Shown here: piece after piece, positions 45,054-64,000 of the stretch
Position numbering within the stretch: the stretch's first letter is position 1
Layout: the number at the start of each line of letters is the position of its first letter
Source: Acidimicrobiia bacterium
GTDB taxonomy: Bacteria; Actinomycetota; Acidimicrobiia; Spongiisociales; Spongiisociaceae
Direction: 5' to 3'
Assembly (NCBI GenBank): GCA_041576165.1
Contig: JBFGLM010000009.1
Location: 32,001-96,000, forward strand
DNA: 64,000 nucleotides
Program-made: the position numbers and the translations under genes
The notes under the pieces: model-generated
Database searches by the model: none
Seen by the model: the letters and a program-made list of their open reading frames with translations, nothing else
Told to the model about the DNA's origin: nothing

Positions 45054-45230
45054 CGGTTCACACGGCAAGTCCCTCGACCGGTCAGAATGCTAGGTCCTCT
45101 CCGGCCCAGCGATCGTTGGGCGAGGTCGCCGCGTACCGGAATGGAAGGCGCCCGAGTTGCTGGCTGGGCCGGGGACAGCTGGACATATCGATGGTGATCG
45201 ATGTATCATACAAGAGTCACGAGGTACATC

Positions 45231-45995
45231 ATGACCGACATCACCGACATCCACATCGAGAAAGACATCAAGGAAGCCGTACGGGCGCGGTACGCCACCG
45301 CCGCATTGCGAATCCTGGACCAGAACGACACCGGGTGCTGCGGGCCGGAAGCGGATACCACCGACGAAGGCCGCTTCGGCGCCTCAGTGTATGATTCCCT
45401 CGCCGCGGCCGAGCTCCCCGACTCCGCCACGCTGGCGTCGCTGGGGTGCGGCAACCCCACCGCCGTCGCGCAGCTCGCCGAGGGCGCAACGGTGCTCGAC
45501 CTCGGCTCAGGCGCCGGGCTCGACGTCTTCCTCTCGGCTCGGCGGGTTGGCGCTTCGGGGAGGGTCTACGGACTCGACATGACCGACGAGATGCTCGAGC
45601 TGGCGCGTCGCAACCAGGCCGAACTCGGGATCGAGAACGTCGAGTTCCTCAAGGGGGATATCGAGGCTGTGTCCTTGCCCGACGACTCGGTCGACGTGGT
45701 GATCTCCAACTGTGTGATAAACCTCTCCACGGACAAGCCGGTTGTCTTCAGCGAGGCGCACCGGGTACTCCGCCGGGGCGGCCAGTTCGCAGTGACCGAC
45801 GTCGTCACGACCCGACCGTTCACTGAGGACGAGAAAGCCGACATGGCCTCCTGGACCGGCTGCATCGCGGGCGCCCTCACCATCGCCGAGTACGAGGACG
45901 GCCTGGCCAAGGCCGGCTTCTCCGCCATCGAGATCGAGGTCACCCACGAAGTCGGCCCCGACGCGGTGAGCGCCATCATCCGCGCAACCGCCTAA
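45231..45995 (+). CDS. arsM: arsenite S-adenosylmethionine methyltransferase
   Basis: VRARY, GCCG, SLGCGNP, VLDLGSGAGLD, GLDMTDEML, ISNCVINLS, WTGCIAGAL. Confidence 0.9.
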   Translation: MTDITDIHIEKDIKEAVRARYATAALRILDQNDTGCCGPEADTTDEGRFGASVYDSLAAAELPDSATLASLGCGNPTAVAQLAEGATVLDLGSGAGLDVFLSARRVGASGRVYGLDMTDEMLELARRNQAELGIENVEFLKGDIEAVSLPDDSVDVVISNCVINLSTDKPVVFSEAHRVLRRGGQFAVTDVVTTRPFTEDEKADMASWTGCIAGALTIAEYEDGLAKAGFSAIEIEVTHEVGPDAVSAIIRATA

Positions 45996-51946: not shown

Positions 51947-52780
51947 TCAGCTTGATCGAGCAGTGTTTCGAGCCGTGACCTGTTCGGAGGGAAACGCGCC
52001 TGCTATCCCGCCGTAGAGGCCGAGTGCGATGTCGGCGCCTGACGTCGCCCCGGCTGCGGCGAGCCGTTGACATGCCGCCTCGCACTCACCTGCGTCACCG
52101 GCGATCGCCGCCGTAAAGATCTCGTGGACGGGAGCGATGGCTTGTCCGACGGCCGCACCGCGGAGGTAGGCCAGGCTGATGGTGCTCGTCAGGTGTTGAG
52201 CCTCCCGGCCGATCTCCCAGCTGCCCGGGGCGAGCCGTCCCAAGGCCACCGAGGCCACCAGGAAACCGGCGATCACATCATCGCCCGCGGGCGTAAGCCC
52301 AGGACCGAAACCGAGCAGGCTCCCGCGAGCGTCGAGGTCGAGCGGGTCGGCAGCCCGCGACAGTCGCGACAGGCGTGCCGAATAGGGCGGGGCCATCAGC
52401 GCCGACGCCTGTGCGTGCGGGGCAAGCGCCGTCGTGAGTATGGGACTGGCCGCGGCTACTCGAGCAGGGTGCGGCAGCCGGCCAACCCACGATGCGCCAC
52501 CGGCCAGATCCACACGCCGGCCGTCTAGTTTGATCCGGTCGCCGGTGACCGGCATTTCGCTTCCGGGCTCCGCCTGCAGTTGATCGGCTGTGGTCGTGAC
52601 GTGGATCGGACCCGGTGGAACGTCCCGGCTCGTCAGCACGATCACCTCATCACCGGATTGTGCGTACACGGCCCGCGGGAAAGCTGCGATCACCCGCCAC
52701 GGCCCCATCATCCGTCGCAATGCCGTCATGGCCATGGAACCGATTGTCGTGGCTGTGACCGAGGTATTGGGGAGCATCAC
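51947..52780 (-). CDS. DUF2877 / YlbF (AllH)-like protein
   Basis: LLGFGPGLTPAGDDVIAG, TSTIS, GATSGADIALG; GTGA overlap with DUF1116 gene. Confidence 0.85.
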   Translation of the reverse strand: MMLPNTSVTATTIGSMAMTALRRMMGPWRVIAAFPRAVYAQSGDEVIVLTSRDVPPGPIHVTTTADQLQAEPGSEMPVTGDRIKLDGRRVDLAGGASWVGRLPHPARVAAASPILTTALAPHAQASALMAPPYSARLSRLSRAADPLDLDARGSLLGFGPGLTPAGDDVIAGFLVASVALGRLAPGSWEIGREAQHLTSTISLAYLRGAAVGQAIAPVHEIFTAAIAGDAGECEAACQRLAAAGATSGADIALGLYGGIAGAFPSEQVTARNTARSS

Positions 52781-54204
52781 GCCAGCTTCTCATCGAGCGC
52801 CAGGAGAGCATCCCGGAACACGGACATTGGAGCCACAGCCACGCCGGCCCCCACCTGGCCGCTGCCGTCCGACTTGTGGAGGATGCCCGTGTTGATGGCA
52901 GGGGCGATCTGCAACTCGATCACCTTCCGCACGTCGACCCCGACAGGCGTGCCGGCGTAATCGAGCACCGGCAGTGTGAACCGGGAGCTGCGCCCCAGTG
53001 CGATGTGCGCCATCTCCTCGGTCACAGCCCGGGCGTCGGCCATGGTGCCGCCCACGAATGCTGCCACCGCCGGAGCGCCCGCCGCCGCGGGTCCCCCGAG
53101 TCCGATCAGCTCCAGCACGGCGCTGTCCCCGATGTCGGGAGCGCTCGACTCGGGCCCGTAGCCCGAGTAGTACATCGCATGCTCAACCGGCGGAGCGGAT
53201 GCGGTGAACCAGCCATCACCGGCCCCTGTCACCTGCACGCCGAACGTGGTGCCGTTCCTGGCCATGGTGACAACTGCGCTGGAGTCTGGGACTTCGCTTG
53301 CCCACGCAGTCGTCACCTTGGCGGCGGCCATCGCGATGTTGAGGAAGAACAGGTGGTTACTGCTCCAGTAGCGGGCGAATTCGGACAAGCCGGCATGGGC
53401 GGTCTCGACCAGATCGGCGAACAGACTCCGAAGCAACAGGTTCCCGGTTGCCTGGGTCCGCATGTGGAGGTCGTCGCCCATCTGCACACCCTGGGCGGCC
53501 AGGGCGAAGACGTTGACCGGCTCGGCGGTCCGCAGCGCGGCGGCGAGCAGCGGGCCCCCTACGTCGGCGAGCCACCGCAAGCGATCCACCGCCTCGGGGG
53601 CGTCGACCCCGAACCAGGCGGTCCTGCCCGGGCCCTGGTTGAGCGGCGAGAACGCCCGGCGATCGTCCATGCCGACCACAAACATGGGAGTGGACGGGCC
53701 CATCGCCGACGCCATCGGCACCACCGTGGAGTGATGGTTGGCGGAACCCAGCGTGACGCGGCCTCCGGCCACCAGGCCGGACGCTTCCTCGTGATCTGCG
53801 GCCCAGCCTTCGGCCAATATGGCGGCGAGCACCGACCGGCGCAGAGGATCGCAGAAGTCCGGCCAGTCGAGCGGCGGTCCACAATGCAGGATCGTGCGGT
53901 CCGTCATGTTCGGAACGACTTCGCGAGCGGGCCGCACATCCGTCAACAGCGGCGTCGCAGTATCCAGGCGGCGGAAGACCTCGGCATTTGCCCGGTCGAT
54001 GCGCTCGGCGTGTTGTCCGAACAGCCGGGTCAGCGCGGCGATCGCCGCCTCGTCGCCGGCGGCCGGAATTCGCCAATCCACCGAGACGACTTCGTGGCCC
54101 TGGGCGCGCACAGCCTCGGCGAGGAGGTCGAGACCGACGTTCACCACCCGCACCTCCTGCGGCAGACGGGGCGGTGTCGGCTGGTCGATAAACTCGTCAC
54201 TCAT
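52777..54204 (-). CDS. DUF1116 / YlbE (AllG)/YahG-like protein with N-terminal VNVGL..VDW module
   Basis: ILHCGPP, MGDDLHMR, HLFFLN, MARNGTTFGV, PDIGDSA, PAINTGILH, GQVGAG. Confidence 0.88.
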   Translation of the reverse strand: MSDEFIDQPTPPRLPQEVRVVNVGLDLLAEAVRAQGHEVVSVDWRIPAAGDEAAIAALTRLFGQHAERIDRANAEVFRRLDTATPLLTDVRPAREVVPNMTDRTILHCGPPLDWPDFCDPLRRSVLAAILAEGWAADHEEASGLVAGGRVTLGSANHHSTVVPMASAMGPSTPMFVVGMDDRRAFSPLNQGPGRTAWFGVDAPEAVDRLRWLADVGGPLLAAALRTAEPVNVFALAAQGVQMGDDLHMRTQATGNLLLRSLFADLVETAHAGLSEFARYWSSNHLFFLNIAMAAAKVTTAWASEVPDSSAVVTMARNGTTFGVQVTGAGDGWFTASAPPVEHAMYYSGYGPESSAPDIGDSAVLELIGLGGPAAAGAPAVAAFVGGTMADARAVTEEMAHIALGRSSRFTLPVLDYAGTPVGVDVRKVIELQIAPAINTGILHKSDGSGQVGAGVAVAPMSVFRDALLALDEKLA

Positions 54205-54580
54205 GCGAACGGTTTCCTCCGTGTGGGAGGGTGATTATCGATGCCGCGTGTTCGTGCGGGATTTCGAGCTGGTGGTCGACGAACCCACCGAGGTCGGCGG
54301 CACCAATACCGGACCCCGTCCGACTGAATTGATGTTGTCCGCCGTCGCCTCCTGTTTCGCACTCGCGATTGCCCACGTGGCCCGCAAGCACGACCGGCCG
54401 CTCGATGATCTGCAGGTCACCGCCTCTGGCGAGTACGACGGGCCCCGTTTCAGCAAGGTGTCGGTCATCGCGTCGTCCGCGATCCCCCAGGAGGACCTGC
54501 AATGGCTGGCCGATCGCGCCAGCCGCGTCTGCTACGTCTCGAACTCGTTGGGGTGCGACTTCGCTTATCGGGTCGAGTGA
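54203..54580 (+). CDS. OsmC-family protein, antisense within the cluster
   Basis: VDEPTEVGGTNTGPRPTELMLSAVASC...CYVSNSL; ATG 54203. Confidence 0.85.
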   Translation: MRTVSSVWEGDYRCRVFVRDFELVVDEPTEVGGTNTGPRPTELMLSAVASCFALAIAHVARKHDRPLDDLQVTASGEYDGPRFSKVSVIASSAIPQEDLQWLADRASRVCYVSNSLGCDFAYRVE

Positions 54581-54581
54581 C

Positions 54582-56084
54582 TCAGACAGCACCTGCTACC
54601 GCCTTCGTGCGTTCCACAACGTCATGCTCGGCCTGGTCGAAGAGGTCGATGAACCGGCGGGCCCGTTCTCGGGCTGAGGTTGCCGTCTCGCGCACGTGAC
54701 CCGCCATCCCAACGACTAGATCCGGCTTAGCTCCGCCCTGACCATGCCGGGTCTGGACTATTTTGCGCGGATCGAGCACATCCCGCAGATCGACGTCTCG
54801 GAGGCCGATCGGGGAGCCCAGGATTTCGGCGGCAGCCTCGTCGATCAGCTCGCCCGTCATGTCGACCCCCCGCATTCCGGCGGCGCTCGCCCTCCGCACC
54901 GCGTTGCCAACCACCCGGTAGGCAGTCCGATAGTCGACGCCGGCCTCGAGCATCACTACCTCGGCCAGGTCGGTGGCCTGAGAAAAGCCGCCCTCGAGTT
55001 CGCTGTACAGGCGGGCGCGGTTGACCGATACGGTCGAGACGACCTCGCGCATGAGCTCCGTGACCCGGAGGGCGAGATCCATCGCGCGGGGCACCTCGCC
55101 ATAGGCGTAGATGTAGTTGTCGCTCCGCGCCGAGGGTGTCTTGATCACAGAGAGGAATCCGGCCAACCGCCCGATCAGCACCCCTGATGCGCCCCGCACG
55201 ATCGACAGCGCGTACGGGTTTCGCTTCTGGGGCATCAGCACGCTGGCCCGGGTGTACGGCCCGGCCAGATCGACGTAGTCGAACTCGGGGCTGGCCCAGA
55301 TCTCGAGGTCCTCAGCGAGCTTGCTCTGATTCGAGACCAGGCTGGTAGTCGTCGACAAGACCGAGACCAACACGTCGGTCTGCCACATTGCGTCTCGGGT
55401 GTGTTCGATGATGCCTTCGAACCCGAGTGCATGGGCAAGGACCTGGCGATCGGCCAGCAGCCGCGTGCCGTTGACACAGCCGGCCCCGCCGGGGCTGAGG
55501 TTCACCGACTGGAGCTCCGAGATGAGGCGCTCGATGTCGCGCAGCGCCGGCGGGGCAAATCCCAGCACGTAATGGCCGAACGTCGAGGGCTGGGCATGCT
55601 GTAGATACGTCTGATCCGGCATGTAGGTTTCGGCGTGATCAACCGCCAGATCGGCGAGCGCCAGGGCGAAATCGGCGCCGGCGCGAGCGACGTTCGCGCC
55701 CATCCGGCGCAGCACCACCCGCATGGCCACACGGGCGGCTTCCCGTCTCGGACGTCCGGCGTGGAGCCAGCCGGTTGCGTCTCCGATCTGAGCGGTGAAG
55801 TGCCGTTCCCGGCAGTTGTACGTCTCGCCGTAGGCAGGGTCGTAGGGAAACTCGTCCGCCGGGGTGGCGTGGGCATCGAGCAGTACCCGGGCAAGGTCGC
55901 GGAGAGCCGGCTTGGGCACCAGGTCGCGGGCCGCCAGGTCGAGGATGTGAGCCATGTCGGCCAGGTTGAGGCCGTGATGGAGGAACGGTGCGTCGTCGAT
56001 CTCGGTCGCGAACCCGGCATCGATCAGCGTCTGTGCCGGAGCGAGGGAGGAGGGCCCTGCCAGCCGGTTGGTTACCTCGGTCAC
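54582..56084 (-). CDS. argininosuccinate-lyase-like protein (XcbC-like)
   Basis: LHAGRPRRE, MPDQTYLQHAQPSTFGH, ASVLMPQKRNPY, ATDLAE, YRTAYRVVG; catalytic motifs differ from ArgH. Confidence 0.8.
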   Translation of the reverse strand: MTEVTNRLAGPSSLAPAQTLIDAGFATEIDDAPFLHHGLNLADMAHILDLAARDLVPKPALRDLARVLLDAHATPADEFPYDPAYGETYNCRERHFTAQIGDATGWLHAGRPRREAARVAMRVVLRRMGANVARAGADFALALADLAVDHAETYMPDQTYLQHAQPSTFGHYVLGFAPPALRDIERLISELQSVNLSPGGAGCVNGTRLLADRQVLAHALGFEGIIEHTRDAMWQTDVLVSVLSTTTSLVSNQSKLAEDLEIWASPEFDYVDLAGPYTRASVLMPQKRNPYALSIVRGASGVLIGRLAGFLSVIKTPSARSDNYIYAYGEVPRAMDLALRVTELMREVVSTVSVNRARLYSELEGGFSQATDLAEVVMLEAGVDYRTAYRVVGNAVRRASAAGMRGVDMTGELIDEAAAEILGSPIGLRDVDLRDVLDPRKIVQTRHGQGGAKPDLVVGMAGHVRETATSARERARRFIDLFDQAEHDVVERTKAVAGAV

Positions 56085-57049
56085 ATCGAATCCTTTCGCA
56101 CGACCGCCTCGAGGATGGTCGCAGTGCCACCGGTATGCCAGAAGATGACCGGGCCACGGAGGTCGCCGGCCAGGCCCACCAAGGCGGCGAACGCTTTCGC
56201 CGTGTAGATGGGATCGAGCAGGAGCGACTCAGCGCGCCGGGCGAGGACGGCCGCGGCGACGGCCTTCCCCCACACCTTTCCATACCCGGGACCGCGGGCA
56301 TCGACCACGTCAGGGACGTTCGATGGAGCCGAATTTCCGGCGAGGTCGCTGCACTCTTCGGCAAGCTGGTGGATCCGAGAGATGGCCTCGTCCTGGCTGC
56401 GGCTGACGGAGGCACCGACTAATGGCCAGTCGGCTCCAACGGCGGAAAAGCCCGAGACGATCCCGGCCAGCGTGCCTCCGGACCCCACCGGAACCATTAT
56501 CGCGGCGGGTTCAATGGCGGCTGTCCGGAGCTGGTCCGCCAGCTCGGTTGCGGCCCGGTGATAGCCCAGTGCCCCAACTGCGGTAGCTCCGCCGCGGGGA
56601 ATGATGTACGGCGTGCCCCCGGCCGCTGCGATCTCGCTCGCCCGCGTACGCGCCAGCTCATCGACCGTTGACCGGTCCGGGTTGCCGGTGAAGTGAGCCA
56701 CCGCCCCGCTCTCCTCCGCCAGTCGGAGGTTCACAGGGGGTGCGTCGGGTCGGCTCCCGTAGAGGATCAGCTCGCAGTCGAGCCCGAGCACTTCGGCGGC
56801 TGCAGCTGTGGTCTGGCACAGATTGGAGCGGGGTCCGCCGCACACGAGGATGGACGTCGCGTCAATCTCGCAGGCATCCGCCAGCAGAAACTCGAGCTTG
56901 CGGACCTTGTTCCCGCCCAGGCTGAAACCGGTCAGGTCGTCGCGCTTGATGTGAAGCGCCACGAGCCCGAGCCGCTCTGCGAGCCTGGGTGCGGGGTGCA
57001 GCGGCGTCGGATAGAGGCCGAGAGAAAGCGGCTCGACGTGCCCATTCAT
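56081..57049 (-). CDS. PLP-dependent D-cysteine desulfhydrase/ACC deaminase family enzyme (XcbE-like)
   Basis: KRDDLTGFSLGGNKVRKLEFL, SNLC, VGSGGTLAG, LDPIYTAKA, FWHTGG; ATGA overlap. Confidence 0.88.
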   Translation of the reverse strand: MNGHVEPLSLGLYPTPLHPAPRLAERLGLVALHIKRDDLTGFSLGGNKVRKLEFLLADACEIDATSILVCGGPRSNLCQTTAAAAEVLGLDCELILYGSRPDAPPVNLRLAEESGAVAHFTGNPDRSTVDELARTRASEIAAAGGTPYIIPRGGATAVGALGYHRAATELADQLRTAAIEPAAIMVPVGSGGTLAGIVSGFSAVGADWPLVGASVSRSQDEAISRIHQLAEECSDLAGNSAPSNVPDVVDARGPGYGKVWGKAVAAAVLARRAESLLLDPIYTAKAFAALVGLAGDLRGPVIFWHTGGTATILEAVVRKDSM

Positions 57050-58419
57050 GGCCACTCGTCAGACTCGTCCTGGCGCTCGGTGGTCGCACGAGCGACCGCC
57101 AGGTCGACCATCTCCGCCGCTGCATGTACCGGAGGCGTGTCCAACAGCTCCTCGATCGCCTCGAGAGTCAGGTGCTCGGCGAGTGCGGGTTGGGACAGGA
57201 TGGTTTCTTTCAAGTCACGCCCTGCCGACCAGCCGTCGCGCAGCGCGCTGAACAGCGCGTCCTGGGCACGGTGCTTGCCCAGCGATGTTGCCAGGGTTGC
57301 CAGTACCGCTTCTGATGCCCAGTAACCTCGAGTCTGATCGAGGTTGCGCCGCATGGCGTGCGGATCGACGTCGAGACTGCCCACGAGGTCCCGAGTGATC
57401 CGCAGCGAGGCACCCGTCAGGAGGCAGATCTCGGGAAACGCCACCCACTCCACCTTCCATCCTCGCCCGTCACGCTCGTGGCTCTGTACCGATCCGTCCA
57501 GAATCGTCTGCGCATGGGAACGGATCAGCCGCCCGAGGGTGACGAGGTGCTCGGATCCTTCCGGGTTGCGTTTGTGGGGCATAGTGATGCTGCCGACCGC
57601 CGCTGTGGAGCCGGCTTCGCCGAACTCGCCGATCTCCGGACGTTGGAGCTCATAGATTTCGTCGCCGATCCGAGCGAGGGTTGTGGCGATCATCGCCATG
57701 AGCAGACTGAATTCGACGACCCGGTCGCGGGTGGTCGTCCAGGAGACCACGGGGTCGAACAGCCCCAGCAGGCTGCAGTAATCGGCGCGTACCGCCAGGC
57801 CGTGGTCGCCGAAGAACGCAAGAGTGCCGACAGAACCGGCGAGTTGGCCGACCAGCCACCTGGTCTGACCCTCTCTCAACCGATGCAGGTGACGACGTAT
57901 CTCGTCGGCCCAGGTTGCGATTTTGAAGCCGGCCGTGATCGGGGACCCAATCTGTCCGTGTGTCCGGCCGGCCATGACCGTGGATCGGTGGCGGACCGCC
58001 ATATCGAGGAGGTCCTTCTCGATTGCGCGCAGGTCGCGCCACGCGACGGCGCCCATTCGTTTCATCGTCAGTGCGGCCCACGTGTCGGTGATGTCCTGCA
58101 CGGTGGCGCCGTAGTACACGTACTGCGAGACGTCGGGAGGCAGCACCTGCTCGAGTCCCCGAATCAGGCCCAGCGTGGAATGAGACGTCGCCCGGGTTTC
58201 GGCTGCGATGTAGTCGAGGTCGAGACGATCCGTGTGGGCGTGGGTCGCGATCTGGGCGGCGGCTGCGTGCGGGATCAGCCCGTTCTTCGCCTGCGCATCG
58301 GCAAGCGCTACCAGGATGTCAAGCCAGGCGTCCAACCGCCCGGCCTCGCTGAAATGATCGCGCAACTCGTCCGTTCCCCAGAGGTGCGCATACATGCTGG
58401 AGTCAGCGATGCGGGACAT
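57046..58419 (-). CDS. adenylosuccinate-lyase-like protein (XcbD-like)
   Basis: YYGATVQDITDT, AGRTHGQ, GQLAGSVGT, GSITMPHKRNPE, HERDGRGWKVEW; start set at ATG 58419. Confidence 0.82.
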   Translation of the reverse strand: MSRIADSSMYAHLWGTDELRDHFSEAGRLDAWLDILVALADAQAKNGLIPHAAAAQIATHAHTDRLDLDYIAAETRATSHSTLGLIRGLEQVLPPDVSQYVYYGATVQDITDTWAALTMKRMGAVAWRDLRAIEKDLLDMAVRHRSTVMAGRTHGQIGSPITAGFKIATWADEIRRHLHRLREGQTRWLVGQLAGSVGTLAFFGDHGLAVRADYCSLLGLFDPVVSWTTTRDRVVEFSLLMAMIATTLARIGDEIYELQRPEIGEFGEAGSTAAVGSITMPHKRNPEGSEHLVTLGRLIRSHAQTILDGSVQSHERDGRGWKVEWVAFPEICLLTGASLRITRDLVGSLDVDPHAMRRNLDQTRGYWASEAVLATLATSLGKHRAQDALFSALRDGWSAGRDLKETILSQPALAEHLTLEAIEELLDTPPVHAAAEMVDLAVARATTERQDESDEWP

Positions 58420-58420
58420 G

Positions 58421-59332
58421 TCACCGTGGCGACGGGTCGACCGGCTGCGAGGCCTCGGCTCGGGGGGAGCTCGACGCACTCCCGGCCAGCGCGACTGCGG
58501 CCTCCAGCCCGGCCCGCACGCCGTCCAGCGTCGATCCCCAAGGAACGTAAACCGTGCCACTGCGCACTTCCATGCCCGATTCGAGCAAGCAGCATTTTGT
58601 GAGGATGACTGCGCCATCGGGTGCTGGCCGCCGCTTCGGGCAGAAATCGACGATCGGAGCGGCCTCGCCGTAGAACCACGTGTGGATCTGCTGAGACCGG
58701 GTGCAGCCAATCAAGGTCCAGTCGCGCTTGGGAGGGCGCTGATCGAGATAACTGATGTCGGCGCGGCCTCGGTCGGACGCCGCGCCCGCACACGGTAGGA
58801 GGTACGGACCGTCTCCCACGATGAGGGCGTCCAGATCCTGGATGTCGGCGATCAGCCGGATCGGGGGGAGATCCTCGGAGACGTCGATGATCCGTTGTGC
58901 TTGGTTCAACAACTTCGCCGGATGGGGTGGAGTCACGTCCCGTATGACGATCTCCAGGGGTTGGGGATCCACGATGAAGCTCACATGTTCATATGCGCCG
59001 ACGACGACGACGCAGCGCCTGCCCGGCGCCTCTCGGTGGGCGACCGCCGCCAGGTTCGACGGGATGCCCGTATCGAGGTCGGGATCCCGAACCAGAACGG
59101 TTTCTTCAGGACTGGCGACCAGCTCCACCCGAGTCACGGGGGAGAACAGTGGCTCCTCCGAAGCCTTGTCTACCGCGATCAGCGCGGTGTCGTCGCCGGA
59201 GATCACCACGATGTATGACGTACGTCGGTACACCTCACGCCCGGTGAAGAATTGTTCCAGCGCGTCGGGGTGGAGATCGAAATCGACTTCGGACACGGCA
59301 ACGTTGCGGTACTGGTCGGGAGTGAGGTTCAT
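58421..59332 (-). CDS. conserved Cys-rich protein of unknown function
   Basis: 303 aa coupled to comA by ATGA; YRRT, G.YEHVSFI, LLPC, LIGCTRSQQIH, DFCP, LTKCCLLE, VPWG. Confidence 0.8.
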   Translation of the reverse strand: MNLTPDQYRNVAVSEVDFDLHPDALEQFFTGREVYRRTSYIVVISGDDTALIAVDKASEEPLFSPVTRVELVASPEETVLVRDPDLDTGIPSNLAAVAHREAPGRRCVVVVGAYEHVSFIVDPQPLEIVIRDVTPPHPAKLLNQAQRIIDVSEDLPPIRLIADIQDLDALIVGDGPYLLPCAGAASDRGRADISYLDQRPPKRDWTLIGCTRSQQIHTWFYGEAAPIVDFCPKRRPAPDGAVILTKCCLLESGMEVRSGTVYVPWGSTLDGVRAGLEAAVALAGSASSSPRAEASQPVDPSPR

Positions 59333-60105
59333 GAGGCGTCGCCGCCCGGGGTCAAACCCTCGCCGAGCGTGTCGGCCCGGAGGCCGCGCCGGAGCGCCTC
59401 GAGCGCCAGCACTCCGTCGGGTGCAATGTTGCCGAGGGACACATTGGATCCGAACGCACGGATGAAGGCGACCTGCTGATGCGTTTGGGGAGCTTCGAAC
59501 ACGACCCGATCGAGCGGGACTGCGTTGACAATGGAATCAACGATGTTCCAGCGCAGTGATCCGTCTGATGAGTAGAGACCCGCAGTGCCGCTCTGCCTGC
59601 CCTCGGCGATGAGCCAGCTGGCGCCCGCGTCGAGGTCCTCGCTCATCTCGTGTGCCCAGGTTTCTGGTTCCATCGTCTCGGAGGGATCCTTGCTGCCGGC
59701 TTCGGCCAACACCTGGAACCGGCCGGAGGCCCGCTCGATCAGCTCTCGTTTGGCCGCCCGACCTATGCGGCCGAGGCTGTCGGAGACCTCGAGGCACGGG
59801 AACCCGATATCTCGCGCCCAGGCGAGACATTCGTCGGTGCTCGACTCCAGCCAGGCCGCTTCGAGTAGCGTGCCGCCAACACAGGCGAGGACGCCAGCGT
59901 CCCGAAGGAGCTGCACCTTCTTGTCGATGGTTGGGTCGAGAAAGCTCGTTCCAAACCCGAACTTCCAGATGTCGGTGTACTCGGCGGTGACGTCGAGCAA
60001 TCCCCGGACGTGCTCGATGGGGACGCCCGTGTCGATGACGTGGGTGAGCCCCGACAGGCGCGGCTTCGCCGTGCGGTCGCGCCGGCCAACCGACCAGGGC
60101 GTCAC
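59329..60105 (-). CDS. comA: phosphosulfolactate synthase (ComA/XcbB family)
   Basis: KPR..GLTHVIDTG, DIWKFGFGTS, GGTLLE, LEVSD, EAGSKD, AEGRQSG, FEAP, LEALRRGLRADT; AGGAG RBS before GTG 60105. Confidence 0.9.
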   Translation of the reverse strand: MTPWSVGRRDRTAKPRLSGLTHVIDTGVPIEHVRGLLDVTAEYTDIWKFGFGTSFLDPTIDKKVQLLRDAGVLACVGGTLLEAAWLESSTDECLAWARDIGFPCLEVSDSLGRIGRAAKRELIERASGRFQVLAEAGSKDPSETMEPETWAHEMSEDLDAGASWLIAEGRQSGTAGLYSSDGSLRWNIVDSIVNAVPLDRVVFEAPQTHQQVAFIRAFGSNVSLGNIAPDGVLALEALRRGLRADTLGEGLTPGGDAS

Positions 60106-60219
60106 GTGCCGTCTCCTATACTCAACGTCTGTGCACTTTACTACCATCGTAGAGCGGCCAACCGGGGTCCGACCGGACCGGTGCACCCTGGGTTCATGCT
60201 ACGAGCCCTGCAGTCTCCC

Positions 60220-61170
60220 ATGACCGACCTGGAGCACGTGGTCGCCGCGTTCCGTGACCATGCCGGGGTTGCCCAGAAAGCGCCGATCCGGGTTGTGTCC
60301 GACCTGGTGGGCACGAGCGATTGGCTCACAGGGCCCGGTGACGACGCGGCGTTCGTGCCGACGGGCGGCGGGCGCATCGTCGTCGGAGGCGAGGCCATGT
60401 TTCCGCCTTTCGTCGACGCCGACCCTCGCGGAGCCGGCTTTGCGGCGGTACTCACCAACGTGAACGACCTGGCGGCAATGGGGGCGGTGCCGCTCGGCAT
60501 TCTGGATACGATCGTGGGGCCGGCAGATGTGGCGCAGCTGGTCCTCGCCGGAATGCGTGACGCCAGCGCCATGTACCAGGTGCCGATCATCGGCGGTCAT
60601 CTGACGGTGCGCGATGGGCCGGCGGCGGTTTCGGCGTTTGGTATTGGAGAGGCGAGCGAGCTGCTGTCGGTGCGCAACGTCGAGCCGGGCCAGGCCATTC
60701 TCCTGGCGTGCGCACTGGACGGAACCATGCGAGAAGATTTCCCCTTCTTCGCCTCTTTCGAGCAGCGGCGTGATCAGATGGCCGGGGACGTGCGCACGCT
60801 GGCCGAGGTCGCCCGCTCCAAAGGAGCAGCGGCTGCCAAGGACGTGAGCATGGCCGGGCTGCTTGGATCGCTCGCCATGTTGCTGGAGGCACGTCAGGCG
60901 GGCGCCCTCGTCGACCTCGGGGCGATCCCGGTACCGGTCGGGGTGCCGATCGAGCAGTGGCTCATCTCGTTCCCGGCCTATGCCTTCTTGCTTTGTACAG
61001 ACCGAAGTCTCGTCGATCATTGTCGCCGTCCCTTCCTGGACCGGGGGCTGACGTGCGATGTGATTGGTGAGGTGACCGATTCGGGAGCGCTCGTGGTAGC
61101 AAGCGGAGACGTGCGCGCAACGGTTGTGCAGTTCCCGGATGACGCGTTGACCGGAATCGCCCCCCTGTAG
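60220..61170 (+). CDS. AIR-synthase-related (PurM/HypE/SelD fold) protein, sll0787/NitF-like
   Basis: GDDAAF, FVDADPRGAGF, NVNDLAAMG, IIGGH, AAKDVSMAGLLGSLAMLLE, WLISFP. Confidence 0.88.
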   Translation: MTDLEHVVAAFRDHAGVAQKAPIRVVSDLVGTSDWLTGPGDDAAFVPTGGGRIVVGGEAMFPPFVDADPRGAGFAAVLTNVNDLAAMGAVPLGILDTIVGPADVAQLVLAGMRDASAMYQVPIIGGHLTVRDGPAAVSAFGIGEASELLSVRNVEPGQAILLACALDGTMREDFPFFASFEQRRDQMAGDVRTLAEVARSKGAAAAKDVSMAGLLGSLAMLLEARQAGALVDLGAIPVPVGVPIEQWLISFPAYAFLLCTDRSLVDHCRRPFLDRGLTCDVIGEVTDSGALVVASGDVRATVVQFPDDALTGIAPL

Positions 61171-61180
61171 AGTCCAGCGG

Positions 61181-61708
61181 CTACGGCGTGAGCGGGATCC
61201 GCATCAGTTGGTGCATCACGCCGTAGGCGGGTGCCGGTTGCCCGTCCTGGTGCCAGCCGAGGTGCTCGAAGAACCGGACGTTCGAGAGCTGCACGGTCGC
61301 GATCATCTCCGCACCCCCGAGCCGGCCGGCCGTGCGCACTGCGGTCTGGACCAGGCGCTTGCCCACGACCATCCGGCGGAACGCCGGAAGGACGGCGAGC
61401 CGGTCGCCCTTCCACAGCCCGTCATCATCGATCGGATAGATCCTGACGGTGCCGGCGGCGACGCCCTGCACATCGGCCACGAGGTGGACGGACGATTCGT
61501 CGCGGTCGTGGGCGTCTTCGTCTGTGCCCGCAAAGATCTCCTGTTCGACGACGAAGACCTCGTGCCGGAGCCGGGCGCATATCGATCGTTCCTCAGACGT
61601 TGCCGCAGGGCGGCACACAACCTCGGGCCGCCCTCTGGTGAGCGGCTCGAGGTCAATTGACGGATCGAACGGGGATACGAGTTCGGTCGCGGTCCGCTGA
61701 CGGCTCAC
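61181..61708 (-). CDS. GNAT acetyltransferase, MSMEG_0567 N-terminal/NitE-like
   Basis: LRHEVFVVEQEIF.GTDEDAHD, GTVRIY, WKGDRLAV, ATVQLSNVRFFEHLGW, HQLM. Confidence 0.88.
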   Translation of the reverse strand: MSRQRTATELVSPFDPSIDLEPLTRGRPEVVCRPAATSEERSICARLRHEVFVVEQEIFAGTDEDAHDRDESSVHLVADVQGVAAGTVRIYPIDDDGLWKGDRLAVLPAFRRMVVGKRLVQTAVRTAGRLGGAEMIATVQLSNVRFFEHLGWHQDGQPAPAYGVMHQLMRIPLTP

Positions 61709-62825
61709 GGCGGCGGTACTCCTCTTCGATCAGGCTCATCCCGGAGCATGCCTGGCACCGGGCGCAGCCGGCCGAGACGGTCCAGGATCCGATTCCCCGA
61801 TCCACCAGGTAGGGCACGACCCGGCGATAGATCGATTCCGTGTACGCGGCATCTGGCGGCAGCAGGTCCTCGAGCAGGCTTCCTGGAACGGGCCGGAGCG
61901 GGACAATGAACGGGTAGACCCCCATGTCGATCGCCCGTTTGCAGCCCGCCACGGTCAGGTCGGGATCCTCGCCCATCCCCAGAATCACATAGGTCGATAC
62001 CTGGCCTTCACCAAAGACGTCGACCGCTCGCTCCCAGGCCGCGAAGTACCCCTCGATTCCGGTTCGCGCCTTCGGCGGCGCCACATTCGCGAGCGTCTTG
62101 GGATCGAATGATTCGACATGAATCCCGACTGCACCGACACCCATGTCGCGGAGCCGATCGAGGGTGTCGAGGTCGTCGGGCGGCTCAAACTGAGCCTCGA
62201 CCGGAAGACCGCTGGCGTCGTGCATTGCCTGGGCGCACTTGCCCAAGTAGAGCGCGCCCTTGTCGTGTCCGTACGTGCTGCCCGTCGTCAGCGTGATGTC
62301 GACTGCACCGTCGAGCTCCTTGGCCGCCACGGCCACCTCAGCCAGATGCTCCGGGCGCTTCGCCGGGATCGTGTTGCCGGACTCGAGCGACAGCTCGATC
62401 CCGCAGAACTTGCATTGATCGCTCGTGTTCCAGTAGGCGCATTTCTGGACAACCGTGCTGGCTAATGAATCCAGATGCAGCAGTGCGATCTTCCAGTATG
62501 GGATACCGTCTTCGGTGCTCATGTCGTAGAACTTGGGCCGCGGGGCGACTTCCGCCGATGCCAGACGTTCCGGTCCTTTGAAGATGCCCCAGCTACCCAG
62601 CAGATCCTGGCGCAACACGTACGGCGAGTCCTTGACGAAATCTGCGCCTACCGGTGCGGTGACGTAGACGCCTTCGATGCTGATCATCCCGGCGTCGGAT
62701 GGCCCGGCGCCGCCGACGCGGGTGGTATCGGCGCTGCGCTCGATGCGCAGGCCGACACTCTGGATGTCTGCGATCAGCGGCGCCAGCTCGGGCCGCATCG
62801 CGGAATGGCTACCAGGCTGCGCCAT
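61653..62825 (-). CDS. radical SAM protein, MSMEG_0568/NitD-like
   Basis: GGAGPSD, RPKFYD..T.DGIPYWKIALLH, LASTVVQKC-x8-CKFC, AQFEPP, GQVSTY, C-terminal GCARCQACS. Confidence 0.9.
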   Translation of the reverse strand: MAQPGSHSAMRPELAPLIADIQSVGLRIERSADTTRVGGAGPSDAGMISIEGVYVTAPVGADFVKDSPYVLRQDLLGSWGIFKGPERLASAEVAPRPKFYDMSTEDGIPYWKIALLHLDSLASTVVQKCAYWNTSDQCKFCGIELSLESGNTIPAKRPEHLAEVAVAAKELDGAVDITLTTGSTYGHDKGALYLGKCAQAMHDASGLPVEAQFEPPDDLDTLDRLRDMGVGAVGIHVESFDPKTLANVAPPKARTGIEGYFAAWERAVDVFGEGQVSTYVILGMGEDPDLTVAGCKRAIDMGVYPFIVPLRPVPGSLLEDLLPPDAAYTESIYRRVVPYLVDRGIGSWTVSAGCARCQACSGMSLIEEEYRRREPSADRDRTRIPVRSVN

Positions 62826-63669
62826 AGAGCTCCTCGAAGTTTTGATGGAACACCCGGTTCTTCAGCTCCTCGCTGACGTCGGTGCCCTCGATCTTCCAGT
62901 ACTCGCCCCAGAAGTCGCTCCAAGGCTCATCCGAGGCGAACAGCACCCGGTCCTCGCCGACCCCCCGCTTCTCGATTTCGTGGAGCAACCACCGGGTGCC
63001 GAACCCGACGGTCCAAGTCGTATCGGCATAGACCTTGTAGCCCTCTTCAACCCAGTCGAGGAAGCGGGGCACCAGTTTGATGTGCCCGCTCACGCCACCG
63101 CCGAAATGTACAAGGTACATCTTCACGCGTTTGCCGTACTCCTCGACCAGGGGGATGTAGTTGTTGATGTCCGACCCGCCGCCGGGGCTCGTGTGGAAGT
63201 GGAACACCAGGTCGTGCTCTTCGGCCGCATCGAAACAAGCATCCGCCACTTCGCGCGTGTCATCGTCCCATTCGTTCGGGTTCGGGTTTCCGCCCAGGAG
63301 GAACGTCGTCTTGAGTGCGACCACCCGGCCCTCGCCGGCATGGCCGAGCGATTCGAGCGTCATGTCCTTGTTCTGTGGAAGGAACGAGACCCACAGCGCG
63401 CCCGCCAGCCGGTCGCTGGTCGTCACCGCGTCGAGCATGACCTCGTTCAGCGAGAACGGCTGCGACTGGACGGGGATTCCGTAATTGGGGATCACCAGAC
63501 CCCGCTCAACGCCATACGAATCCAGATGTTTGATATAGGCCGCCGTGTCCGGAAAGTCATAGACGGTGGGGCTCACCGGTTCCTTCAAGTCGTAGAACTG
63601 CCACGGTTCCATGGCGCCGATGTGGCTGTGTCCGTCGATCACTGGTCGGGATACCTTCGGGGAACTCAT
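62809..63669 (-). CDS. amidohydrolase-family metalloenzyme
   Basis: IDGHSHIG (HxH), FHFHT, LVHFGGG, VLFASDEPW; GAGGGAGG RBS. Confidence 0.88.
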   Translation of the reverse strand: MSSPKVSRPVIDGHSHIGAMEPWQFYDLKEPVSPTVYDFPDTAAYIKHLDSYGVERGLVIPNYGIPVQSQPFSLNEVMLDAVTTSDRLAGALWVSFLPQNKDMTLESLGHAGEGRVVALKTTFLLGGNPNPNEWDDDTREVADACFDAAEEHDLVFHFHTSPGGGSDINNYIPLVEEYGKRVKMYLVHFGGGVSGHIKLVPRFLDWVEEGYKVYADTTWTVGFGTRWLLHEIEKRGVGEDRVLFASDEPWSDFWGEYWKIEGTDVSEELKNRVFHQNFEELYGAAW

Positions 63670-63819: not shown

Positions 63820-64000
63820 AACCACTGGTCCCTGTGGCTGCAGTGACGGCAGTGCCGCCGGTACACGCTGTACGTGCCGAGCTCGGCGCCGATTCCGGCC
63901 CACAATTGTGGGACCGGCATCAACTATCCTCAACATTGCATGGCTTTTGGTGGACGGCGCGGCGACGGGTGCTGCGATTCGGGACGAGACTCCCGATGAG

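Follow-up and report, generated by a model that had tools for sequence, protein, structure and literature searches.

In a 64,000-nucleotide stretch of a metagenome-assembled genome (MAG) of an Acidimicrobiia bacterium (assembly GCA_041576165.1, contig JBFGLM010000009.1, positions 32,001 to 96,000; hereafter the window), we examined five contiguous minus-strand genes, xcbB(comA)-xcbA-xcbD-xcbE-xcbC, that occupy positions 54582-60105 (the underlying open reading frames, ORFs, span 54582-60186). We consider it likely that these genes constitute a complete coenzyme M (CoM) operon that is not used for epoxide or alkene metabolism and that serves a conserved supercluster of about 19 kb in which it is embedded, with CoM as the predicted product and a predicted role within that supercluster. 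To our knowledge, CoM is known in bacteria only from organisms that oxidise alkenes and vinyl chloride, where it carries groups derived from epoxides.

The first gene of the operon, xcbB/comA (59329..60105, minus strand), is predicted to encode a phosphosulfolactate synthase that acts on phosphoenolpyruvate (PEP) and sulfite (Pfam ComA, E 5e-76); it starts with GTG at 60105, with AGGAG 7 nt upstream, and its product scores 232 bits against TIGR03849, under the archaeal cut-off of 280. It is followed on the same strand by xcbA (DUF7714; 58421..59332), encoding a predicted [2Fe-2S] thioaldehyde reductase as in Xanthobacter (NF052538, 310 bits, cut-off 150; Pfam DUF7714, E 2.7e-84), and by xcbD (57046..58419), an adenylosuccinate-lyase-like (purB-like) gene for a predicted 3-sulfopropionyl-cysteine synthase (NF052536, 577.6 bits, cut-off 600; purB, 277 bits). 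The last two minus-strand genes are xcbE (56081..57049 from an ATG, or ..57055 from a GTG), for a pyridoxal phosphate (PLP) enzyme of the D-cysteine desulfhydrase family (NF052537, 264 bits, cut-off 450; CuyA, 231 bits), and xcbC (54582..56084), argininosuccinate-lyase-like and predicted to eliminate phosphate from phosphosulfolactate to give sulfoacrylate (NF052535, 419 bits, cut-off 575; argH, 251 bits). The XcbE translation contains GGNKVRKLE, which we take to be the PLP-lysine motif of its family. Two junctions are ATGA overlaps (xcbB/xcbA and xcbD/xcbE, unless xcbE starts at the GTG 6 nt further upstream), xcbE and xcbC share a GTGA overlap, and xcbA and xcbD are separated by a 1-bp gap (TGA-C-ATG); direct reading thus bore out the coordinates and the linkage of the five genes described in the initial annotation. 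Such start/stop overlaps are ordinary within operons of high-GC bacteria; they show a single transcription unit and are nothing unusual in themselves. What goes beyond chance is the gene content, because the same five genes were found in the same order in 64 out of 80 XcbA loci. The divergent intergenic region between xcbB and the neighbouring AIR-synthase-like gene (60106..60195), which we read in the sequence as the presumed site of both promoters, contained no sigma-70-like and no GlnR-box-like site. A promoter scan of positions 53800-61300 gave 0 promoter-like sites, and a terminator scan of the same range gave 2 terminator-like sites vs 2.6 expected. Finally, a scan for GlnR boxes (consensus GTNAC-N6-GAAAC) returned 15 matches in the window vs 8 expected, none of them in the xcbB/AIR-synthase-like intergenic region.

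The best curated hidden Markov model (HMM) family in Pfam and NCBIfam for the five proteins was ComA, XcbA_fam, XcbD, XcbE and XcbC, respectively; all five families are therefore present and clustered. In Xanthobacter autotrophicus Py2, according to the available text of PMC9457059, XcbB forms phosphosulfolactate, XcbC sulfoacrylate and XcbD 3-sulfopropionyl-cysteine, while the last steps are taken by XcbE, which yields sulfoethanethioaldehyde, and by XcbA, a [2Fe-2S] protein that yields CoM; the chemistry cited in the initial annotation agrees with that text. Among the positions that are invariant in 19-22 alkene-type proteins (19 for XcbB), the window proteins keep 46 out of 51 in XcbB, 52 out of 67 in XcbA, 101 out of 112 in XcbD, 61 out of 74 in XcbE and all 77 in XcbC. 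Paralogues from the same genome keep fewer of them (ArgH 41 out of 77, PurB-like 69 out of 112 and PLP enzyme 45 out of 74). Moreover, the housekeeping genes are separate, with ArgH on contig C7 (30% identical) and the PurB-like gene on C38 (39%), and in a quick XcbC tree (70 rows, after exclusion of rows with <80% coverage) the genome's own ArgH was an outgroup to all XcbC, with a branch length of 4.6 changes per site. With separate genes, a distant ArgH outgroup and fewer invariant residues in the paralogues, the window lyases do not group with housekeeping ArgH and PurB; the HMMs, the invariant residues and the tree all make the genes orthologous to the Py2 pathway, as had been proposed when comA, purB-like, PLP-enzyme and argH-like genes were first read here as Xcb genes. 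XcbA residues Cys181, 210, 231, 247 and 248 were present in 84/84 aligned rows and are candidates for the [2Fe-2S] cluster and a redox disulfide. The AlphaFold2 model of XcbA (pLDDT 90, pTM 0.83) had no convincing fold relative in the PDB, neither by Foldseek (best match E 4.6e-3, TM 0.15; TM at most 0.2) nor by VIA-align, whose best Z of 6.4 (rmsd 3.7, 97 residues, generic alpha/beta) is below a meaningful level; a phmmer search of XcbA against the PDB returned nothing, and the PDB copy used yielded no sequence of any Xcb enzyme. We infer from this orthology that the five genes form one operon for a complete Xanthobacter-type pathway, with CoM as its product.

We examined the genomic context of XcbA relatives in one genome per species (185,579 species), which gave 371 stretches; the best 80 were returned, nearly all of them from Actinomycetota. 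A tblastn census within ±10 kb, in which the alkene type was defined by epoxyalkane:CoM transferase (EaCoMT) of at least 300 bits or 2-KPCC of at least 380 bits, assigned 48 of these best 80 out of 371 to a supercluster context, 20 to an alkene context and 0 to both, and the other 12 were short contigs or contained only SDR/CoA-transferase genes. All five xcb genes were present in 45 out of the 48 supercluster-type loci. The accompanying genes encode an AIR-synthase-like protein (40/48), a GNAT acetyltransferase and AllG (37/48 each), carbamate kinase (33/48), a radical SAM protein and FdrA (32/48 each), a glycosyltransferase (30/48) and a flavoprotein (28/48), and every one of these was found in 0/20 alkene-type loci. 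The dominant gene order is nearly fixed, in blocks that run allH-allG-xcbC-E-D-A-B, airs, gnat-rsam, ck-fdrA-gt and coadr; mapping the ORFs of the window's own contig on the 48 loci showed that the conserved block runs from AllG to the regulator. In one genome of the phylum sample described below, whose supercluster is otherwise full, comA and xcbA (G607:C1:1711476-1713075) each matched as two adjacent pieces in different frames, which suggests frameshifts, from decay or from assembly error.

An unbiased sample of 400 other genomes drawn evenly across the phylum contained XcbA in 10 genomes and, together with genome G509, 11 xcb carriers, of which 7 had the supercluster context, 3 the alkene context and 1 neither. 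In particular, three XcbA genomes carried EaCoMT (48-52% identity), five combined xcb with the radical-SAM supercluster, either on one contig or within one genome, and one had an orthologue of the flavoprotein 8 kb from xcbA. In the eleventh carrier, G509, the flavoprotein and an XcbC orthologue with 61% identity were encoded on small contigs. XcbA is patchy in the class to which the window belongs, with 2 positive genomes among 300 others. In the XcbC tree, the 45 supercluster rows and 2 unlabelled rows (47 including the window) formed one clade (SH-aLRT 93) that was nested among the alkene-type sequences.

The known users of bacterial CoM were not found in this genome, a MAG of 5.1 Mb in 161 contigs that is 96.5% complete. 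The best match to EaCoMT was 27-28% identical and scored 56 bits (116 bits by tblastn), where true EaCoMT reached about 590 bits in the alkene-type loci and 313-366 bits in the phylum sample; the best match to 2-KPCC was 26-27% identical and scored 72-94 bits, against about 500-545 bits in alkene-type loci. The own genome is thus without EaCoMT or 2-KPCC above 28% identity, in line with the placement of the operon outside alkene metabolism in the initial annotation. A search of the genome with PF02332 (soluble di-iron alkene monooxygenase) gave no match, with a positive control that was silent in every genome too, and a Pfam scan of 44 long ORFs from six alkene-type loci found no monooxygenase. 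In 9 further genomes with the supercluster context, including the isolates Nocardioides guangzhouensis 130, Pseudonocardia sp. TRM90224 and P. ailaonensis, no EaCoMT match exceeded 74 bits, and none of the 48 supercluster-type loci had EaCoMT, 2-KPCC, an SDR pair or CoA-transferases. The archaeal ComB-E route, which had also been described as absent, is missing as far as it was searched: ComB (PF04029) was not found in the genome (control positive in 7 out of 14 genomes) and ComD (TIGR03845) gave only 64.7 bits, under the cut-off of 148, while ComC and ComE were not searched for.

A tblastn search of plasmids with XcbA returned 6 records, namely Py2, Nocardioides JS614, two plasmids of Mycolicibacterium chubuense NBB4 and two of Methylocystis iwaonis. 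The window operon shares with xcbABCDE of X. autotrophicus Py2 (pXAUT01, Xaut_5051-5055) the five families, at 36-42% identity, and the XcbA cysteines, but its order is B-A-D-E-C and not A-B-C-D-E, and the Py2 genes, unlike those of the window, stand directly after 2-hydroxypropyl-CoM lyase (EaCoMT), 2-KPCC and two dehydrogenase genes. The order B-A-D-E-C is that of Nocardioides sp. JS614 pNOCA01 and of the NBB4 plasmids (43-49% identity), as well as of Methylocystis. In JS614 and NBB4 the xcb genes are also adjoined by a CoA-disulfide-reductase-like flavoprotein gene whose product has the same single cysteine and is only 31% identical; however, these clusters lie beside SDRs, CoA-transferases and EaCoMT/2-KPCC-type genes on catabolic plasmids, and their XcbC fall outside the clade that contains the window XcbC. 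On one M. iwaonis plasmid (L015, NZ_CP143315.1), the xcbBADEC operon is divergent from a true Nit1C cluster (nitrilase, radical SAM, GNAT, AIR synthase and Pnap_2097). The same plasmid carries, at 175033-175373, about 20 kb from xcbBADEC, two TAG-broken EaCoMT fragments (50-63% identical to residues 14-129 of Py2 XecA), which may be a relic of an alkene-type ancestor.

The supercluster itself resembles two known systems. The gpr cluster of M. smegmatis (MSMEG_0565-0572), the equivalent of the Nit1C or sll0783-0787 nitrogen-starvation cluster, is described in the available text of PMC6039565 as a GlnR-dependent peroxide-resistance cluster that raises NADPH/NADP. Homologues of MSMEG_0565, 0567, 0568 and 0572 were found in the window's cluster above their cut-offs and the sll0787-type AIR-synthase-like protein below its own; unlike gpr, the window cluster adds AllFGH-like genes, carbamate kinase, a flavoprotein gene of the CoA-disulfide-reductase-like kind and the xcb operon. 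A Nit6803-type nitrilase and a Pnap_2097/MSMEG_0570 homologue were not found in the window's own cluster nor in any of the 48 related loci (the MSMEG_0569 flavoprotein was not searched for). Judged by these genes, the supercluster is a derived relative of the gpr/Nit1C nitrogen-starvation cluster and not a member of it. The second system is allFGHK of E. coli, which the part of PMC11326118 at hand gives as an oxamic transcarbamylase with a catabolic carbamate kinase. All three subunit families and the carbamate kinase are present in the window's cluster, but the subunit genes fall into two divergent units, one on each side of the xcb operon, and the cluster showed no allantoin genes.

Downstream of xcbC, on the same strand, where it is usually found in the related loci as well, lies a gene for an AllG-like subunit of an oxamate-carbamoyltransferase-type enzyme (52777..54204; Pfam AllG, E 2.4e-63), followed by one for an AllH-like subunit (51947..52780, minus strand; Pfam AllH, E 8.5e-22) whose sequence is weakly conserved. 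Between allG and xcbC, and convergent with the latter, is an OsmC-like peroxiredoxin-family gene of uncertain start (54203..54580, plus strand; Pfam OsmC, E 4.1e-16), present in 8 out of the 48 loci. Within 54203-54584, the OsmC-like and xcbC stop codons are 1 bp apart and the OsmC start that gives the longest frame (54203) lies directly next to that of AllG (54204); since no space is left for a terminator or promoter, the OsmC-like or the AllG start probably lies further in. On the other side, divergent from xcbB, is the gene for the sll0787-family AIR-synthase-like protein (plus strand, from an ATG at 60196 or 60220 to 61170; TIGR04049, 245 bits, cut-off 321). The second-best family of this protein is methanogenesis marker protein 2 (TIGR03267, 180 bits, E 5.8e-53), a family that belongs to the other group of CoM-using organisms. 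Next come, all on the minus strand, a MSMEG_0567/Sll0786-family GNAT acetyltransferase (61181..61708; TIGR04045, 103 bits, cut-off 68), a MSMEG_0568-family radical SAM protein (61653..62825; TIGR04043, 373 bits, cut-off 304) and an Amidohydro_2 family hydrolase (62809..63669; Pfam PF04909, E 2.7e-16). The hydrolase gene occurred in 5 out of the 48 XcbA-centred loci and in 9 (L129, L133-L140) out of the 20 regions that were taken from either side of a radical SAM gene.

The cluster continues beyond position 64000 on the same contig (C9; coordinates are given as window equivalents) with carbamate kinase (63996..64934, plus strand; TIGR00746, 330 bits), FdrA/AllF (64931-66469; NF004760, 407 bits), the MSMEG_0565 glycosyltransferase (66466-67641; TIGR04047, 357 bits, cut-off 260) and three minus-strand genes: a MSMEG_0572-family protein (68286-68771; TIGR04044, 214 bits, cut-off 110), the CoA-disulfide-reductase-like flavoprotein (69198-70520; Pyr_redox_2, with its single Cys42 conserved) and a helix-turn-helix (HTH)-cupin regulator (70756-71385). 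Just past the supercluster on C9 (L097, 13164-19001) are genes of an alternate F1F0 ATPase: F1 beta (TIGR03305, 730 bits), F0 A (TIGR03306, above cut-off) and F0 B. A few genes from the cluster on the other side, an ArsM-type arsenite methyltransferase (window 45201-45995; NF008823, 304 bits, cut-off 263) stands beside sugar ABC-transporter and LacI-family genes.

Several observations weigh against a CoM operon that serves this supercluster. Window XcbD, XcbE and XcbC score under their NCBIfam cut-offs and only XcbA exceeds its own. The alkene-type cluster of Nocardioides JS614 on pNOCA01 is also below them, with XcbC at 378 bits and XcbE at 315 bits; because these two fail as well, the cut-offs appear to be narrower than the functional family and the sub-cut-off scores would not be informative. 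Supercluster-type XcbE and XcbA keep on average 76% and 86%, respectively, of the alkene-type invariants and are the most diverged steps, so that the final two steps could yield a modified product. The quick XcbD and XcbA trees cluster the two types strongly (the context label needs 3 and 5 changes, vs 24 and 27 when shuffled) but give no single origin. The 80 loci are those most similar to the window XcbA and are thus biased towards its own type. The MAG carries 7.5% contamination over its 161 contigs, so its absences are genes not found and not genes proven to be missing. Finally, the sequencing runs that contain the stretch were 14 DNA runs and no RNA run; they came from 5 studies, and the four best carried the label marine metagenome.

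A further point of this kind is that the supercluster with an orthologue of the flavoprotein (56-57% identical) occurs in 3 high-quality XcbA-negative genomes of one family (f63). The flavoprotein and the cluster therefore have no strict requirement for CoM. Because the same block exists without XcbA in that family, the xcb operon is a recruited add-on: the supercluster predates it and can work without it, xcb was recruited as an accessory and the combination then spread. Canonical gpr loci of the phylum sample (L128-L132) were without xcb and without AllFGH genes. We had also considered the flavoprotein as CoM-specific, an association that looked perfect at ±10 kb and that the whole-sample search ruled out, since the orthologue is present in the 3 XcbA-negative genomes as well, immediately beyond the ranges first taken. 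Two XcbA-negative genomes of the same family, G432 and G618, have an XcbC-like lyase (39-40% identical) elsewhere, and a homologue of ComA (293 bits) is encoded in G618 as well; they may have a partial or different sulfonate route.

The alternative that survives best, though we regard it as unlikely, is that the product of the operon is a sulfonate building block (CoM itself or a precursor, e.g. 3-sulfopropionyl-cysteine), that free CoM is not the working cofactor, and that the glycosyltransferase, GNAT, AIR-synthase-like and radical SAM proteins elaborate the building block into a larger molecule, such as a secreted natural product or a glycosylated, acetylated thiol of low molecular weight that resembles mycothiol or bacillithiol. 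Apart from its own family, the closest named families of the MSMEG_0565 glycosyltransferase include MshA (E 4.8e-29) and BshA (1.1e-22), and the cluster has a GNAT and an amidohydrolase; mycothiol synthesis by the Msh enzymes likewise uses GNAT-type and amidohydrolase steps. The low conservation of XcbE and XcbA and the OsmC-like gene of 8 out of 48 loci point the same way, as do the peroxide resistance and the raised NADPH/NADP attributed to gpr in M. smegmatis in the text seen of PMC6039565. However, the glycosyltransferase/GNAT/radical SAM/AIR-synthase core also exists without any xcb gene (the gpr loci L128-L132 and family f63), and therefore its substrate cannot in general be a CoM-derived sulfonate; in addition, all five xcb genes are kept, including the thiol-forming XcbA with its five cysteines.

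It is far less probable that CoM still detoxifies an epoxide, an alkene or another electrophile, through a transferase unlike EaCoMT or a distant MetE-like protein, with a coincidental neighbourhood. Three MetE-like open frames that are 24-28% identical to EaCoMT lie on contigs C83, C43 and C45, and the EaCoMT fragments of the Methylocystis plasmid suggest an alkene-type ancestor, in keeping with an XcbC tree in which the supercluster clade sits among alkene-type sequences. Yet the MetE-like genes are away from the cluster, similar weak matches are general among the genomes, the alkene-type neighbours are missing from 48/48 supercluster loci, and the gene order shared with AllG/AllH and the AIR-synthase-like gene varies too little to be coincidental. 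That the lyases and the PLP enzyme are diverged arginine, purine and cysteine paralogues, with ComA making sulfolactate for another purpose and no CoM-type thiol formed, is barely credible: ArgH, PurB and D-cysteine desulfhydrase models do match (E 1e-65 to 1e-82) and three Xcb models are sub-cut-off, but the Xcb models are top for each protein by 33 to 300 bits (33 being XcbE over CuyA), argH and purB-like genes exist separately, ArgH is a distant outgroup that keeps 41/77 of the XcbC invariants against 77/77, and XcbA, known only from the CoM pathway, is present above its cut-off.

We thus return to a CoM operon that serves the supercluster. By analogy with Py2, XcbB would add sulfite to PEP, XcbC would eliminate phosphate to give sulfoacrylate and XcbD would add cysteine; XcbE, with PLP, would then cleave and decarboxylate the adduct to sulfoethanethioaldehyde, which the [2Fe-2S] protein XcbA would reduce to 2-mercaptoethanesulfonate. 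CoM would be made on site to act in the supercluster pathway as a small thiol, either a carrier or a cofactor, and the flavoprotein may keep it reduced, or free it from a disulfide or thioether. A more specific proposal, which we put forward only tentatively, is that CoM could be the dedicated small-thiol cofactor of a widespread actinobacterial nitrogen-starvation/redox pathway, a use that in Actinomycetota would be commoner than alkene use. One version of it, which includes S-carbamoyl-CoM and S-cyano-CoM, follows the logic of HypF/HypE: carbamate kinase would supply carbamoyl phosphate for transfer by the AllFGH-type enzyme to or from the thiol of CoM, the AIR-synthase-like enzyme would use ATP to interconvert S-carbamoyl-CoM and S-cyano-CoM, and nitrogen would in this way reach assimilation as a one-carbon unit (cyanide, cyanate or ureide) borne by CoM, with the flavoprotein of CoA-disulfide-reductase type and a DsrE-like protein recycling the CoM. 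The related Nit1C cluster has been linked to cyanide assimilation in literature available in part, which fits the S-cyano-CoM version.

According to the available text of a 2024 paper (PMC11507031), CoM biosynthesis genes are found only in methanogens and alkene-utilising bacteria, and in the text at hand of PMC8727900 the xcb genes are described solely as parts of etn clusters. A bioRxiv preprint on Desulfobacterota, in the part available, concerns archaeal-type comABCDE, and not xcb, in bacteria. We found no literature report linking xcb to Nit1C/gpr, AllFGH or carbamate kinase, in a search that left most subscription journals outside. The suggestion of the initial annotation that CoM extends here to a new lineage and use can be kept in part: the lineage is new at class level (the nearest relatives are Acidimicrobiia MAGs) and so is the context, but the phylum Actinomycetota was already known for CoM.

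Most of the xcb clusters sampled in Actinomycetota have a different, highly syntenic context without a CoM user of the known type. Because most of them sit apart from known CoM users, there is probably a second CoM-dependent process in common soil and sediment actinobacteria. The finding also gives a chemical handle on the uncharacterised nitrogen-starvation clusters of the gpr/Nit1C type, and it warns that xcb genes in metagenomes should not be read as a sign that alkenes or vinyl chloride are degraded. Such a role is open to direct testing in cultured carriers, such as Nocardioides guangzhouensis 130 and Pseudonocardia sp. TRM90224.

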